Of a stretch of DNA of 41,926 nt, positions 33,001 through 39,000 are shown piece after piece. Source of the DNA: a virus; the IMG/VR virus record IMGVR_UViG_3300045988_155081, positions 1 through 41,926 of that record. One strand, 5' to 3'. Position 1 is the first letter of the stretch; every line of letters starts with the position of its first letter. The position numbers are program-made.

Positions 33001-36000
33001 AATATTTATACATTTTGACATTTTCCACCAAAAACATTATCACCACACTGAACATCTTTCGCTCAAATATTTCAATTTCGCACTTTCCCTTGACTTTCCG
33101 CGCCAAATCGCTTATACTATCACCATAGTCATTATTTCCCCCGTTTGAGAAAGAGTGATGATTTGTTGCCACCACCAACACTTCACCGCTCTTTTTCTTT
33201 TGCCACAAAATCAACCTTTCGCCCACTCCCCTTATATTATATATATATTTATGCACTAAATATTATGCAATAGACACACTCACTCGCACTCACCCACACC
33301 CCACTCACTCTCCCCTATATCACCGCCGTACACTATGAGAGGGTAAACCCGCAGGGATTGGGCGCGCGCAAAAAATGGCAGGGGTACACCCGCGCCCGCA
33401 CGCACGGAAAAACGCACGAACGCGCCCGCAATCCGCCCCCGTCGTCCATTAAACGACCGTTTGACGGACACAAGCCCCCACAATTTCAGAAAACCGCCCT
33501 AAAACACCCCAACCACCCGAACCCCCGCGCGCGTATGCGATAAGTAAAGATATATAACTTACTTTTGGCAAAAGATAAGAGCATAATATAATAGCAATAA
33601 TATAATATATAAGTGAGTGCTTATAACTTGTTTTAAGAGAAAAGAAAAGATATATAATATAAAGGCGTATAAGGGCATATATTAAGGCGTTAGCGATATA
33701 GACGGGCAAAGAGTGCGCCCGCCCGCGTTCCGTGCCTTGTAGCCCCTTTTATAGCCTTATGTATAAATATACAATAGTATGTATAAATATACAAGTAGTA
33801 TATATATCAATAGTGATATGGCATTATATCAGAATTGGTATGGGAAAAACTATTGACAACGACGCGCCGCCGTGGTAATATAAAGACATAAAAACAAGAG
33901 CGACATTTATATTTTTGAAAATCAAAACTAAACAAACCGCCACCCCGCGGGCATAAACGCGGGGAAAGGAGTTTAAGTATGAAAACATTGCACGAAATCA
34001 AAAAGGAAATTGAAGCAAATCAGGAAGTAAAACGCGCGAACGATGCGGAACGCGCCAAAGCCGATAACGCTTTTATTATGGCACACGAGGCACACGACCG
34101 CAACGCGGCGGGGCTTGCGTCGCTTGAAATCGACAAATTACAAAAAGCCGCCGAGCGCATAAACGCACGCGGGAAAGTCCTAACTAATAATTATAATTAT
34201 ATACTTGTCGAGATGGGGAAAAATGCGCTTGCGGAAATCCTGAAAAAGTACGACGGGAAAAAACACGGCGAGAAAACCGCCGAAAAAATCCGCGACGAAA
34301 TGCGCGAAAGGGGCTATAATTGTTATTTTCCATCTACTCATTATTTTTCGCAAGAGAAAGATTGTATTAACATTAACGAGCGCGGGGCATACGGGCGCGG
34401 GCTTGAAATCTGGACGAAAAACCGCGCGAAAATCGTTGACGAAAACAACACCATACACGCCGACGCGGTCGCGGAACTTGTAAGCCCTTATAAATATATT
34501 GACAATATCGAAACATATCTTGACGAAATCGAACGGCTGACCGCCGAAACCCGCAAGGCGTTTGACGCGGCGACCGCAAAAGCGCACGAATTAAACGAGA
34601 TCGCGGTCGAGGGTTTGAAATGGCGCGACTGACCGCGCAACCCGTCGCGGCGGGTATAAAAAGGGTTTAAGCCGCGAGCGTCTGACGGTGGGAGCGTCCC
34701 GCCGTCGGGGTACTACAAAATAAAGGAGTGAAAAACAATTTATGGGAAATGAGTTTGTAATTACAAATAGAAACGGTACGGCATACTTAAATATTTTTGC
34801 GCCTGGCGACTTGCCCAAACGCACTAAAAACGGTTTTTCAATTAAAGATATTATATCTTTTTCAAAAAAAGACTACTACGTTTTTAATAGTTACGACGAA
34901 GCCAACGAATTTTGGCGCGTAATGCTCCGAGCGTGCGACGAGAACGCCGACCGCTGGAAGGCTGTCCACTGGGCGGCGGACGGATATATTAAAGACTTTA
35001 TTTACAATCTGAAAATTAAAAGAATATAGGAGAGCGAAAAAATGACATATCAACAAGGAAAAGAACGGGCGCGGGAGCGCGCTATCGAGTGGCAACTTGA
35101 TTTTGACAATCACACTTACAGTTATGGCGAACTTGCCGACTTCTGCGAATATTTCCGTCGCCTTGGCAAGCGTTACGGACTTTTAAGAGAGTTTCACGAA
35201 AACGGCATTTGTTAAGGAGTGATATATTATGAAATACTATCCCGAAACCCTTATTCAATCAACCTTGACGGCACACGGCGCGCCTTGTACGGTTGCGCCT
35301 GCGGTGCTGGGCTACACTTGCACGACCTACACGGCACACCTTGACGGCGGAAACACGCCGCAAACGGTCAAAAAGGCTGTCGGCGCACTGGAAATCGCCA
35401 CGGGGCAAAAAATCACTTACAACGCGAATACGGGCGTCGGCAATACGATTAAAATCACAATCCCGAACCCTGAACGCACTTTTCCTAACTTTTTCGCTTT
35501 CGGGCGGAACGCATACAACAAGTGCGCGGGCGAAATGCTCATCGGTATTGATACGGACAATCAACCTATTACGGCTAATATTATGGACACCCTTTCGGTG
35601 CTTGTCGCGGGCGCAACTGGAAGCGGCAAAAGCGTTGCTGTAAATAATCTTGTGCTTTCGCTTGCAATCGGTGCGAAACCGTCCGAAATCGTCTTTTTAA
35701 TGATTGACCTGAAACGCACGGAGTTTTCAATTTATGACGGACGTTTGCCGCAACTTATCGAACCCGTCGCTTACACGTTCGACGAAGCCCTGCGCCTTAT
35801 CCGCAAAACCGCCGACGAAATCGACAAGCGATATAAGATATTACAAGAAAAAGGCAAGAGAAAAGCCGACCTTTCCGACTTTCCGCTTTTCGTGCTTGTC
35901 ATCGACGAATACGCGCAACTGCGACAAGGCACAAAGGATGCGCGTGATATGCTTGATACACTTATGAATAAAGTTGTCAATCTGGGGCGCGCCTGCAATG

Positions 36001-39000
36001 TGTTCGCGATTATAGCGACACAAAATCCCGTGCTACAAGTTATCAATTCGACCGTAAAATACGGCTGCCAAACAAAAATCTGTCTTTCGGTCAATAATCA
36101 AAGACATAGCATAAATATAATTGATTGCGCCAAAGCGGTTGACCTGCTCGGCAAGGGCGATGCGCTCGTATCGCTCCCGAACTCGCCCGACCTGCAACGC
36201 GTACAAATCTGCGACTTACCAACAAGCGACATACAATACATTTTAGGAGAATAGAAAAATGACAATCTATACGCTTTTTATAAACGGAAAACAAAGGGAC
36301 TACACCGACAAGCGACGCGCCTATGCGGTAGCCCGCCTTTTCGGAGCGGTGGTATTTACCCGTGAAAAATACATCTACACACTTGAAGAAGTGCTTAAAA
36401 AATAATAACATCAAAGGAGTTTTGAAAATGGACATTAAAGAACTTAATTGTTTTAGGCAATATTTGGACACTGACAAAATCGCCAAAAAAAACATATATC
36501 CATTTGTTTGGTTAAGCGGAAGTAATACGCTTGTTAGCCCTATTGCATATTGCAAAAATGAAATCATCTTACAATGGAACGGCAAACGAAACATTTACCA
36601 AAAATGGATAGAGCGAACGGTCAAAAAGTTTGATAACATATTAAAGGACGGTTATTTTGACAAAGGCGACGGAAGTTGCCCCCCTGCAATAGTATTTGAA
36701 TTAAAAAATTGTTTAGAAACAAAGTAAAGAAAAGCCCACGGTTTTGTGCCGTGGGTATCTTTTTGCCCTTTTCCGCCCCGTGATTGCCCCGTGGGCGGTT
36801 TTTTATATTCGGGTGATAACTTGTTCGTCCGCTGTGCTTTCGCCGTTTTTAAGGCGGTTTGTCGCCCTTTGGCTCGGCGGTATCTTGCCGCCTTTCCGCA
36901 ATAAGTAAATGTATTGTGATATTGTGTTTGCGCTCCGTCCCATTTGCGGGGCTATCTCGGCGGGCGTTTTCCCGTCCTTGACGGCTGCAATCAAAGCCCT
37001 TTCGTCGTCGCCCGTCCACGGTCTGCGCCTTTCCTTTTCCCCGTCTAATAATGTGCTTACATAGTTTATACTATGCCCGATTGCCCGCGCAATCTCACTA
37101 TAAGAGAACCCACAACGGTATAAGTATATCACGCGCTCGCGGTGAATATCCCTAACCGCCGCCCTGCGCCATTTATTATCTTTTATGTACTTGTATATCG
37201 TCGTCCCGCATACGCCCATTTCTGCGGCTATTTGGGCAACCGACGCTCCGCCCGCATATAGTTGCCTCATTCTGGCAATCTCAACGCCGTTCGGCTCAAA
37301 CTTGTTCGGTCTGCCCGTCTTTTGCTCGCCCCTATATATTGCTATACTCCAATAGTATTTTGCCATTCCAAGCGACACGCCAAGCCTTTCTGCGACTTCT
37401 CGGAGCGTTACTCCGTCCGCCCGCATTGCAATGGTCTTTTCTATGTTTTCTGCGGTTTTAGGGTTATTATATCGGCGCACATCGTACTCGTGCTGTTTCT
37501 GCACTTTCTGCGGTTTCGGCGACTTTGGTTTTGGGGAGTGTGGCGGTATCACATACTCGCCCTTTCCCCTTGCCTCGTGTAATATCCCATAATACTGGTA
37601 TATGCTTATAGGAATTATGTTAAGTGTTTTTTCTGTCGAATAATGACGGTTATAACACTCGACTACTTGCTTTTTAATTTCGTCCGTGATTTCTCGTGTT
37701 TTCATTCTTCTTCCAAAATGGTGTCAATGCACCTACGATAAAACGATAAAATGGATTTGATTTTGGCTATACAATCAGCCCAACCTTTTTCAGAATAATT
37801 ATAGTGATAACCATATTTATTGCCTGCAATTACGAACCTAAAACCTGTGTTTTCGTGTTTCCTATTGCGAGTAATATAAACTCCGTTTAGAATTTCCTTA
37901 TAATTATTATGTGCAATTATAACTTCAAGGTCTTTTTTCTCGCCATATTTAGGCTCGCCACAATCGTCCTTGCCGAGATATACATAGTCGGTATAAACGC
38001 AATAACCTTTATCAATTTCTTCAAATGTCGGAAATTTCATTTTTCTTTCTCCTCGTATGAATTATCAAATATTTTATTTTCACTTTCTACTTCTAAATCA
38101 CAGAACACAACATAATCTTTTAGTTGCATATAATCTGTGATATAAACTATGTGATACAACTTATCTTTGAGTTTATCGTTTACATAAGGGCTATCAATGC
38201 AAGTGTATCTGATAATGTCGCCTACTTGATAGTTCCTGTCATTGAGGCGTATTTCAAATGGCTTGATACCTTTTAGTTTCGCATTTGCATACTCTGCTTT
38301 AATTTTTAACTCGTGTAACCTCATTTTTTACCACGCTATACCAAATTGTCCTTTGAACGAATATTTACTAAATCTATCATAAATTTCTCTTGCAAATTCG
38401 TTGCTTCCTGTCATCATAACTCGAGGTATATCGAAAAAATGCCACTTGTCCCTTTGTATATTGCTCGCTTCGTCTTGATGATGTTCTTGAAGCCATTGTT
38501 TATCTTCGTCGGTAAATACAACACTGTATTCTCTTTCAATTTGCTCGATTGATAAATTTCCTAAATATATATTCATTCTTCCACCTCCGCTTGTTTGCAT
38601 TGTTCACATTTATAATACATCGTTTCGTCTTTGGACACCCCATTGCAAGTTATTGCAGAGAAACCAACCTCTTCATTAAAAAGGTCGCATACATAACTAA
38701 CACAAATAGGGCTATAATGAGAAATTGCGTATCTGCAAAACTCACAATTCTTTGGCACTTCAAGTTCAACTCTTATCTTCGGCATTTTGCACCTCCACAA
38801 TAGTATCAGGTTTCAGAACGCAAAGCGGACGAACCCCGCCGCGACCGTAGTACGCATTGAGGTAGTCCAGTGAACCGTCTGAATAGACAAAGCGAACATT
38901 GTCCGAGTATGTCACACTGTCCGCTGTAATCGTCCAATGCCATTCCCCGTAGTTCGGGATAAGTTTCCTGTATTTACGGTATTCGTCGCAAGTTAATAGC

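Follow-up and report, generated by a model that had tools for sequence, protein, structure and literature searches.

Why should a tailed phage that already has a terminase also encode an FtsK/SpoIIIE-like motor, in an operon of its own, and was that operon acquired from elsewhere? The locus lies in an uncultured gut phage (IMG/VR record IMGVR_UViG_3300045988_155081) whose 41.9 kb genome, a circular assembly with a 55-bp overlap, includes genes for TerL, portal, capsid and tail. The whole stretch of 41,926 nucleotides is referred to here as the window. Six plus-strand ORFs make up the block, as an earlier note on this DNA had counted, and a multi-HTH gene converges on them (Table 1).

Table 1 Coordinates of the features discussed, in positions of the window
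Feature	Coordinates	Strand	Remarks
Portal gene	27851-29494		Comes after the large terminase gene
Large terminase subunit	29752..31728	-	Clusters with far-locus TerL; heads the late operon diverging from the FtsK operon
Divergent control region	33257..33978	.	Between leftward late operon and rightward FtsK operon
C-rich island	about 33262-33540		Within the divergent control region
Two perfect TGTATAAATATACA palindromes	33760-33773, 33780-33793		Operator-like
Promoter-like site TTGACA-17-TAATAT, extended -10	33853-33881		Promoter scan, consensus level
g217	33979..34632	+	First gene of the operon; uncharacterised phage protein family, about 210-250 aa
Pistol self-cleaving ribozyme	34640-34715	+	Rfam RF02679
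g95	34742..35029	+	Small variable ORF; no family match
g57	35042..35215	+	57 aa; no family match
ftsK	35229..36254	+	Soluble FtsK/SpoIIIE-type dsDNA translocase, alpha and beta domains only, 341 aa; conserved anchor of the operon
g48	36259..36405	+	48 aa; travels with ftsK; no family match; tblastn match in 14/14 close loci
Last ORF	36428..36727	+	99 aa, ATG after AAAGGAG; variable, AT-rich
Bidirectional intrinsic terminator	36734-36756	both	Terminator scan, two strands; between convergent operons
Second hairpin with T-run	36777-36800		Downstream part of the 36734..36800 terminator region
Tandem helix-turn-helix (HTH) protein	36803..37705	-	300 aa; closes the leftward early operon and is convergent with the FtsK operon
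Small serine recombinase	40233..40931	-	Resolvase/invertase type; PF00239 1.8e-20; phrog_125 DNA invertase 1e-35
Probable small terminase subunit	40946..41608	-	GP3_package-like; profile-profile match to far-locus TerS cluster

Profile searches and motifs indicated that the motor belongs to the FtsK/SpoIIIE family and has an intact ATPase site. The protein matched Pfam PF01580 (3e-28, 99 bits against a cut-off of 24) and, over residues 31-328, phrog_1358 (E 3.4e-51), which makes it a member of both families; its best sequence match was P. aeruginosa FtsK (PDB 2IUU, 8e-31). The match to the NCBIfam FtsK model NF007615 (9e-32) scored 109.8 bits and did not reach the curated cut-off of 1566 bits. 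Walker A (GATGSGKS), Walker B (VIDEY), the arginine finger and the ATQ(R/N)P motif are found at positions 128, 224, 253 and 263, and Walker A, Walker B, the GRA arginine and ATQxP were invariant across an 18-sequence alignment (A1). The earlier note had recognised this ATPase and its Walker motifs and had stated that it lacks membrane and gamma domains; both statements held. The phage protein shares with the cellular motor (2IUU) an alpha-like N-terminal region, the beta RecA-like domain and all these motifs, but differs from it in having no N-terminal membrane domain, linker or gamma winged-helix. A hydropathy scan detected no stretch resembling a membrane helix, and hence no septum-targeting N-terminal membrane domain: the highest 19-residue value (1.81) fell in the core, immediately behind Walker A, and not at the N-terminus, which extends only about 100 residues ahead of that motif. 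PF09397, the gamma winged-helix, gave no match at E<=0.1 in FtsK or any neighbour, and the protein ends about 15 residues past the last conserved beta-domain motif, whereas the cellular FtsK matches do carry PF09397. In cells, the gamma domain activates Xer recombination. Because this domain is absent, neither KOPS/SRS reading nor XerD activation would be expected of the phage protein.

Phage FtsK/SpoIIIE-like proteins (PHROG 1358, 3551) are known from the gamma-like Bacillus phages Fah, W-beta and phiCM3, from Bastille-like Bacillus myophages and from cluster J mycobacteriophages. Like them, the protein studied here is a stand-alone motor encoded outside the late operon of a tailed phage with a normal terminase. 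It differs in belonging to a short, alpha-beta-only gut-phage group (about 340-390 aa), in being encoded between packaging genes, and in having an operon that includes a self-cleaving ribozyme. Relatives were found in at least 438 IMG/VR contigs and 333 GenBank phage records; among the best 40 matches listed, identity to GenBank phage proteins was at most 31%. FtsK-like proteins of PHROG 1358 are annotated in hundreds of phages, none with a tested function, in agreement with the earlier remark that no role has been established for these motors in tailed phages.

Segment 33979-37705 had been described as visibly rich in CG and GCGC, and sliding-window analysis confirmed this. Its GC content was 46.3% versus 41.8% for the whole genome, a value attained by only 0.5% of 3.7-kb windows (maximum at 33851), with CpG at 90/kb versus 61/kb and GCGC at 9.7/kb versus 3.6/kb; the stretch 37702-38324, described as AT-rich, had 32.6% GC. 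The shift is real, modest and uneven across genes (g217 0.476, ftsK 0.489, HTH gene 0.485, g95 0.392, last ORF 0.333), and the major capsid gene (26021-27172) had a GC content of 0.514, above all genes of the block. Among 76 distant phage loci, from phages with a GC content of their own of 29-50%, ftsK was richer than its flanks in 92%, with an excess of +3.9 points (p 7e-13). The excess is thus common to the gene family and not an anomaly of this genome specifically.

These results bear on the proposal, made in the earlier note, that the block is a horizontally acquired cassette. A recent origin in a conjugative or integrative element, for DNA transfer, would suit the genome's 3.7-kb GC maximum, an operon with its own promoter and terminators, and an ATPase of a type typical of ICEs. 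We regard it as extremely improbable: beside the family-wide GC excess, FtsK co-diverges with TerL (Mantel rho 0.69, p 0.002, for FtsK versus TerL similarity), two results on which the conjugative/integrative origin was rejected, and the anchor genes are present in all relatives, with a synteny that recurs in distant phages. The protein shares its ATPase superfamily with the conjugative translocases (Streptomyces TraB, the 6o1w coupling protein, the Tn916 Orf21 type) but is far nearer cellular FtsK by sequence and profile, its matches to 6o1w (2.5e-9) and TraB (9e-4) being much weaker. Nor were a membrane anchor, clt-type repeats, a relaxase or a T4SS gene found with it, which sets it apart from the coupling proteins and TraB. 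The class of Geobacillus phage NIIg9.7, which combines FtsK with a replication/relaxation protein, is more distant and differs in layout.

Conservation within the lineage followed the same line. FtsK was 97-98% identical at the amino-acid level in 10 relatives (dN/dS 0.04-0.07), and ftsK (dN/dS about 0.04), g48 and the HTH gene were kept in 10/10 close relatives. Exchange among phages about 95% identical affected the small genes upstream of ftsK, g95 being present in 2/14 close loci (tblastn), and the last ORF was patchy too (replaced in loci L004 and L007, deleted in L008 and L009). Co-occurrence of the six genes therefore applied to ftsK and g48 and not to the upstream small genes or the last ORF. 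Likewise, the possibility allowed for in the earlier note, a common, syntenic core block with a known function, proved right for the anchor genes but wrong as to the known function. An imported island would be patchy in close relatives and discordant with the core in phylogeny; the block did not show this pattern, patchiness being a property of the upstream cargo and the last ORF. Collectively, the sequence comparisons indicated that the operon has long been part of a broad phage group, in which it is conserved, and is not a recent import.

The setting of the operon also recurs. In 24 of the 68 far loci with room for terS, this gene converges on ftsK from <=2.6 kb downstream, and terL diverges upstream of ftsK in 16/56 far loci, often with a small serine recombinase. 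This synteny is not universal, since in a FastTree phylogeny the window's clade joined short FtsK proteins from loci without the terS/terL layout; in two loci grouping with it in the FtsK tree (L035, L061), ftsK lies beside SbcC-like, RecT-like and RDF-like genes. The probable small terminase subunit of the window had no Pfam or PHROG match of its own. It aligned to the TerS cluster of far loci, members of which match PF16677, with a probability of 58% (hhalign, E 9.7e-5, 138 columns), and a fold search gave no significant match (P22 gp3, E 2.3) with a model of pLDDT only 70.5.

The constant position of the operon beside terS and opposite the late genes in many lineages, together with a predicted strong host-type promoter with operators, could be taken to mark a 'leading-region' module. 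On this view the operon follows directly after the packaging start, so that the next cell would receive it with the leading DNA and express it in a burst; the motor would then assist in drawing in or establishing the remainder of the genome. We find this very unlikely: the packaging start, with its pac site, direction and genome ends, is a presumption in the circular assembly, it is hard to see how a soluble motor could work where the DNA enters, and terS lies 4.7 kb from ftsK in the present genome, with about ten genes between.

The serine recombinase suggests a further possibility, the maintenance of a plasmid-like prophage, with the recombinase resolving multimers and the motor segregating or decatenating copies, as a phage version of FtsK plus site-specific recombination. 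It was the only recombinase found, no integrase, excisionase or CI-like repressor appeared among the ORFs scanned, and homologues accompany the FtsK operon, on its TerL side, in 9 far loci. The reading is nevertheless very unlikely, given that the Xer-activating gamma domain and the membrane/septum domain are both absent, that neither ParA/ParB nor plasmid Rep was found, and that no plasmid or host-integrated copy was recovered. Serine resolvases also work without a motor, and the enzyme could just as well act as an invertase on the 31/33-nt inverted repeat (5780/38040).

Predicted control elements supported the earlier proposal that the block is a transcription unit with its own operator-controlled promoter and terminators, facing the convergent HTH gene; the promoter-like site, the TGTATAAATATACA palindromes and the bidirectional terminator were all found at consensus level. 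Allowing <=2 mismatches, a search for TGTATAAATATACA returned 6 matches, all in 32999-33793, with 0.65 expected by chance. The convergent gene had been credited with five HTH units; it is convergent and multi-HTH, but four HTH_23 stretches were seen (1e-19), along with matches to HTH_7, Sigma70_r4_2, the Terminase_5 HTH, phrog_664 and phrog_323. Its similarity to Cbp1, a three-HTH CRISPR-repeat binder, was weak (7e-10, below cut-off), and it occurred in 14/14 close loci and 0 far loci.

The cargo genes gave few clues to function. An SD precedes the g217 ATG at 33979; the g217 family comprises 172 representative clusters at E<=1e-3 and gave no Pfam, PHROG or PADLOC match of note. Its AF2 model (pLDDT 96.5, pTM 0.88) combines a long helical hairpin with a small alpha/beta domain and a C-terminal helix, and had no match in the PDB (best E 0.2); the sole structural match was an uncharacterised Siphoviridae protein (TM 0.83). 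The dN/dS of g217 was 0.17. A homologue is found immediately upstream of FtsK in L028, and far loci have upstream proteins without relationship to g217. Homologues of g57, 45-57% identical, precede FtsK on its own strand in L034, L036, L077 and L087. The last ORF is alternatively listed as 121 aa with a GTG start at 36362.

Cargo turnover among near-identical phages raises the possibility of an anti-defence or host-takeover island, an operator-gated, early-type slot for fast-changing counter-defence genes. FtsK would be its stable anchor or itself an effector that strips host nucleoid or defence proteins from DNA, or disturbs FtsK-dependent chromosome handling and division in the host. The PHROGs category of the family is 'moron, auxiliary metabolic gene and host takeover', LPD29 (a polyvalent conflict-protein domain) occurs in upstream partners of other lineages, L035 has a MazF-like gene upstream, and the defence proteins SspH and mad8 contain FtsK-type domains. 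In PADLOC, however, only the FtsK ATPase domain aligned, namely with mad8 and with the C-terminus of the SspH profile (1561 aa). The other operon proteins gave no match, the partner genes were absent and no full system could be assigned; beyond the ATPase domain, the operon proteins match no known anti-defence or defence family. An ftsK dN/dS of 0.04 also fits core DNA-handling genes better than arms-race genes. We consider this island a possible but doubtful explanation; it overlaps the one we prefer, with variable cargo and a conserved motor, and differs from it only in target.

A further element, which the earlier note did not mention, is a full-length Pistol ribozyme (60.5 bits against a gathering score of 34.5, full model 1-68) with the core GUAUAAA and GAGCGUC conserved. 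It begins 8 nt past the g217 stop codon and ends 26 nt ahead of the g95 start codon, leaving the g95 SD intact. Pistol is kept in the close relatives L001, L002 and L003 (44-57 bits), with one compensatory G-C to A-U pair change between the window and L001, and is predicted to cut the operon transcript. Other ribozymes fill the equivalent place in other lineages: Twister-P5 directly follows an upstream ORF in L027, and in L029-L032 Hammerhead-II precedes ftsK on its own strand. A ribozyme was found in only 7/70 far loci scanned, one of the 7 on the other strand. Processing of polycistronic RNA has been proposed as the role of ribozymes next to phage genes (PMC3088659), and a Pistol between two cistrons matches the prophage-operon hammerhead, twister and pistol ribozymes described before (Perreault 2011, PMC3088659; Harris 2015, PMC4604425). 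Unrelated ribozyme classes at an equivalent place in related operons also correspond to the published pattern of 'ribozyme-associated genes' (PMC6765202), the conserved gene identified here being the phage FtsK-like motor.

We therefore hypothesize, as the probable explanation, that the block is the phage lineage's own FtsK-anchored accessory operon, with a ribozyme-split transcript and a motor that acts on phage DNA before packaging. A predicted host-type promoter behind two palindromic operator-like sites heads the six-ORF plus-strand unit, which ends at the bidirectional terminator that it shares with the convergent HTH gene. The single constant and strongly constrained product is the soluble alpha-beta motor, with its ATPase site intact, and the genes around it are exchangeable. 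Self-cleavage by Pistol would yield two messages, the first carrying g217 and ending in a 2',3'-cyclic phosphate, the second carrying g95, g57, ftsK, g48 and the last ORF, starting with a 5'-OH and retaining its ribosome-binding site; the stability and dosage of the cargo message would thereby be uncoupled from those of the motor message. The motor would form a hexameric ring translocating double-stranded DNA. Lacking a gamma domain, it would presumably move without regard to sequence orientation, and lacking a membrane domain, it would work away from the septum. From gene context, our best guess is that its substrate is phage DNA in the early or middle phase of infection, from which it may remove bound proteins, or whose replicating and recombining concatemers it may move and disentangle before packaging. 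This would fit the fixed place of ftsK by the packaging genes and the RecT/SbcC recombination block in the nearest outgroup phages. The FtsK/SpoIIIE gene of gamma-like Bacillus phages belongs to the delayed-early class (PMC4113786).

Elsewhere in the genome, a second plus-strand unit of two genes, encoding a DnaD-like loader and a methyltransferase, was found at 3994-5768; the earlier description of the FtsK block as the only long plus-strand operon was thus nearly right.

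The ends of the 41,926-bp record overlap by 55 bp, and the window is therefore a circularly assembled phage genome. Most genes are carried by the minus strand, and only two units are found on the plus strand. The earlier note had described the FtsK operon as the only long plus-strand operon; it is indeed one, but a second plus-strand unit precedes the late genes in the numbering. Two features, the TTGACA/TATAAT form of the promoters and the DnaD-like loader, are taken to point to a Firmicutes-type host. One scan of genome contigs for a host or a prophage state had a single match, a contig of 5 kb assigned to a Bacteroidales MAG, and a DNA search of GenBank phages with positions 33200-37800 gave none. 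A GP20-a RNA motif (Rfam RF02991, 54.6 bits against a gathering score of 47.2) was detected in the late operon, between the portal gene and the next gene (202 aa).

Coordinates of the features discussed in the phage genome
Feature	Position	Strand	Content or remark
First plus-strand unit	3994-5768	+	DnaD-like loader and methyltransferase
Inverted repeat, first copy	5780-5812	+	31/33 nt
Late operon	~33256 down to 5857	-	TerL (29752-31728), then portal, capsid and tail genes
GP20-a RNA motif	27750-27839	-
C-rich island	33262-33540
Pistol ribozyme	34640-34715		full-length
Terminator	36734-36756		bidirectional
Tandem-HTH gene	36803-37705	-
Inverted repeat, second copy	38008-38040	-	31/33 nt
Probable terS	40946-41608	-	profile match 58%, E 9.7e-5
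Early operon	~3450 via origin of numbering down to 36803	-	exonuclease, ERCC4-type nuclease, small serine recombinase, tandem-HTH gene last

The FtsK operon is compact, covering 2.9 kb from promoter to terminator, and is separated from the late operon by a non-coding region of 720 bp. This region contains two perfect TGTATAAATATACA palindromes 20 bp apart, with related copies nearby only, and a promoter-like site (TTGACA-17-TAATAT). The strand-asymmetric, ORF-free C-rich island between the two operons is kept in the relatives L002 and L006; an Rfam scan of the island gave no match, and it could be a pac site, an ori site or a non-coding RNA. Shine-Dalgarno sites were found for each of the six plus-strand ORFs, and the terminator lies between these ORFs and the HTH gene. 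This gene content was as previously described, including the convergent orientation of the HTH gene, which was said to encode five HTH units and in which we measured four or more. The tandem-HTH protein showed a weak alignment with Cbp1 over 120 residues (7e-10, below the cut-off). Cbp1 is an archaeal three-HTH protein binding CRISPR repeats, and the alignment suggests that the phage protein reads an array of repeated DNA sites. A search for inverted repeats flanking the FtsK operon, which would make it a segment invertible by the serine recombinase, found none that was convincing.

The ATPase encoded by ftsK matched PF01580 and phrog_1358, and both of its Walker motifs, A and B, are intact. 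As the earlier note had claimed, it lacks membrane and gamma domains: no membrane-helix-like segment and nothing past the beta domain was found, and the possibility of a split gamma domain encoded by a small neighbouring ORF was rejected (no PF09397 signal at E<=0.1). Staying below every curated cut-off, the motor was nearest to cellular FtsK (PDB 2IUU, 8e-31; NCBIfam FtsK, 9e-32) and much further from the 6o1w DNA translocase coupling protein (2.5e-9), EssC/EccC and TraB (9e-4). A FastTree phylogeny of 186 rows, with many long branches, placed its clade no further than in a 14-member set of short, gamma-less proteins. In this rough tree, the FtsK proteins of loci L035 (3334-12877) and L061 grouped with the clade; their genes are part of a single long plus-strand run, amid genes for an SbcC-like ATPase, a RecT-like annealase, RDF-like and MazF-like proteins and a metal-dependent hydrolase. 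The motor would work in the cytoplasm as a hexamer that translocates dsDNA irrespective of orientation.

The compositional shift reported previously was confirmed by measurement. The GC content of 33979-37705 is 46.3%, against 41.8% for the genome, a value reached by only 0.5% of 3.7-kb windows; the block is also denser in CpG (1.5-fold) and GCGC (2.7-fold), and 37702-38324 falls to 32.6%. Inside the block GC is uneven (0.48-0.49 in g217, ftsK and the HTH gene, 0.39 in g95 and 0.33 in the last ORF), and the most GC-rich gene of the genome is the capsid gene (0.514). Relatives of the motor are encoded in at least 438 IMG/VR contigs and at least 333 GenBank phage records. In a far set of 76 IMG/VR loci, with FtsK 24-37% identical to that of the window, the GC content of the FtsK gene exceeded that of the remaining locus in 92% of cases (mean +3.9 points, p 7e-13), and its absolute value, from 0.32 to 0.61, tracked the composition of each phage. 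The GC excess is thus a property of the FtsK gene family.

Enough downstream sequence was available at 68 of the far loci, and at 24 of them a small terminase gene of the GP3_package type converges on ftsK within 2.6 kb; in 16/56 loci a TerL homologous to that of the window diverges 2.4-5.8 kb upstream. In the window, terS and the recombinase lie 4-5 kb past ftsK, separated from it by the HTH gene and some ten small genes; the terS assignment is probable and moderately supported by the profile match, and a fold search for it gave no significant match. FtsK and TerL similarities correlate across the 13 genomes with both genes (Mantel rho 0.69, p 0.002), indicating that ftsK has long travelled with the packaging genes. 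This association and the family-wide GC excess remove the basis for a recent transfer, and the proposal of a horizontally acquired cassette, which had made the block appear unusual, does not hold. A conjugative cassette, as first suggested for the operon, is contradicted by the same two observations, by the missing membrane-helix-like segment and by the proximity of the motor to cellular FtsK rather than TraB. A small serine recombinase occurs on the TerL side of ftsK in 9 loci; a rival explanation holds that the motor acts jointly with this recombinase in plasmid-prophage maintenance.

The close relatives analysed for conservation were ten IMG/VR contigs of 40-47 kb, together with a 68-kb contig and a 6-kb fragment. 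All these close relatives have ftsK, g48 and the HTH gene, and their FtsK proteins are 97-98% identical to that of the window. With a dN/dS of 0.04-0.07 at dS 0.2-0.33, ftsK is under strong purifying selection, and the positions corresponding to 33979-35229 and the last ORF are swapped, lost or enlarged between phages. The FtsK operon is phage-owned, conserved and under separate control. The 68-kb contig (G001, carrying L006 and rated 100% complete) was considered as a host-flanked prophage and rejected, as it has no host flank; it consists of the phage and an extra 23.6 kb (44571-68187) of 30-35% GC DNA encoding other tail-fibre-like proteins, the product of chimeric assembly or else a second set of structural genes.

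Among the partner proteins, g217 (encoded at 33979-34632) belongs to a family of uncharacterised phage proteins (172 representative clusters at 50% identity, P0249-P0394) whose invariant motif is Y..GK.YGEKT..KIR. Near-identical g217 proteins number more than 250 in public metagenomes, in which this lineage is thus abundant. Searches of Pfam, PHROGs, PADLOC, NCBIfam and PDB sequences gave no function for g217. Its very confident AF2 model (pLDDT 96.5), which combines a helical hairpin and a small alpha/beta domain, matched no solved structure, the sole match being an uncharacterised phage protein. Homologues of g57 were found upstream of ftsK in four far loci; g57 aside, the upstream partners vary between lineages, and those tested as remote g217 homologues were unrelated to it. 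The polyvalent-conflict-protein domain LPD29 occurs in some upstream partners. An odd fusion was found at L018 (599-2725, +), where a 708-aa protein upstream of the FtsK-like gene combines an aminotransferase class V N-terminal half (1.5e-31) with LPD29. The operon may alternatively be read as an anti-defence or takeover island, but apart from the shared ATPase domain its proteins gave no match to known families of defence or anti-defence.

A Pistol self-cleaving ribozyme, missed in the earlier note, begins 8 nt past the g217 stop codon and ends 26 nt ahead of the g95 start codon, so that the g95 ribosome-binding site remains on the downstream product. Among close relatives it is retained wherever g217 is retained, with one compensatory change from G-C to A-U. 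Judging from sequence, the constant product of the operon is an intact soluble FtsK alpha-beta motor, and the transcript bears a canonical Pistol with predicted cleavage, which would part the cargo message from the motor message.

Rfam scans were extended to 70 far loci (~845 kb). At L027, an upstream ORF of 413 aa has a Twister-P5 immediately past its stop codon, 0.3 kb ahead of ftsK; in the single lineage of L029 to L032, one or two type II hammerheads lie on the ftsK strand 0.4-1.6 kb upstream. Three unrelated ribozyme classes thus hold the equivalent intercistronic place in three lineages of the FtsK-operon type. A hammerhead was also found at L055, 3.6 kb upstream on the ftsK strand, and a twister at L043, downstream on the opposite strand; the 25 most distant loci gave zero ribozymes. 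With a sample of 70 loci and no proper genome-wide control, an enrichment of ribozymes near FtsK operons is suggestive only. These observations agree with the published finding that structurally unrelated ribozymes have common gene neighbourhoods in phages (PMC3088659, PMC4604425, PMC6765202), a clustering that is acknowledged in the literature as unexplained (PMC6765202).

Handling of replicating or recombining phage DNA prior to packaging is tentatively favoured as the most likely role of the motor; a leading-region module is a rival explanation. We consider it unlikely that the FtsK-anchored operon is one conserved functional unit of a large gut Firmicutes-type siphophage group, an establishment or 'leading-region'-like module. 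Such a unit, transcribed against the late genes and beside the packaging genes, would be cut by whichever self-cleaving ribozyme the lineage carries (Pistol here, twister or hammerhead elsewhere); cleavage would insulate the fast-changing cargo message from that of the DNA pump, and the pump would clear or haul the phage genome as it enters or replicates. Were this true, phage FtsK-like motors would acquire a concrete role, and so would the unexplained associations of bacterial self-cleaving ribozymes with particular genes.

FtsK/SpoIIIE-like genes in tailed phages are already well known as annotations, present in hundreds of genomes, none with an assigned function. In gamma-like Bacillus phages the gene is delayed-early (PMC4113786). 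Bastille-like myophages and cluster J mycobacteriophages also carry annotated FtsK/SpoIIIE-like genes, and a more distant phage class pairs FtsK with a replication/relaxation protein. The window is a well-described example with a clear layout and a ribozyme, not a new kind of system. Since its lineage combines motor and ribozyme in one compact operon, it would lend itself to use as a model, should a host or a relative that can be cultivated be found.

Other RNA elements were observed at far loci. At L050 (5-1041, -), in a viral contig of 48.8 kb, a ROOL RNA (299 bits) is flanked on both sides by tRNA genes, four in all, 5 kb upstream of the FtsK-like gene. In the cluster-J-like mycobacteriophage contigs L039 (10373-10408) and L040 (11095-11130, -), the FtsK-like gene is followed at a distance of about 4 kb by abiF RNA motifs, with a tRNA gene nearby in L040 (10753-10824). 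Finally, the inverted repeat of the window was confirmed; it duplicates the first 11 codons of a 112-aa gene (37702-38040), and an exact copy of its first 20 bases is absent from the 68-kb relative. The two copies divide the circle into one arc of 32.2 kb and another of 9.6 kb. The sole recombinase is a small invertase/resolvase-type protein, with the Mpi DNA invertase family as its best NCBIfam match, and it is therefore conceivable that the early region bounded by the repeat is invertible.
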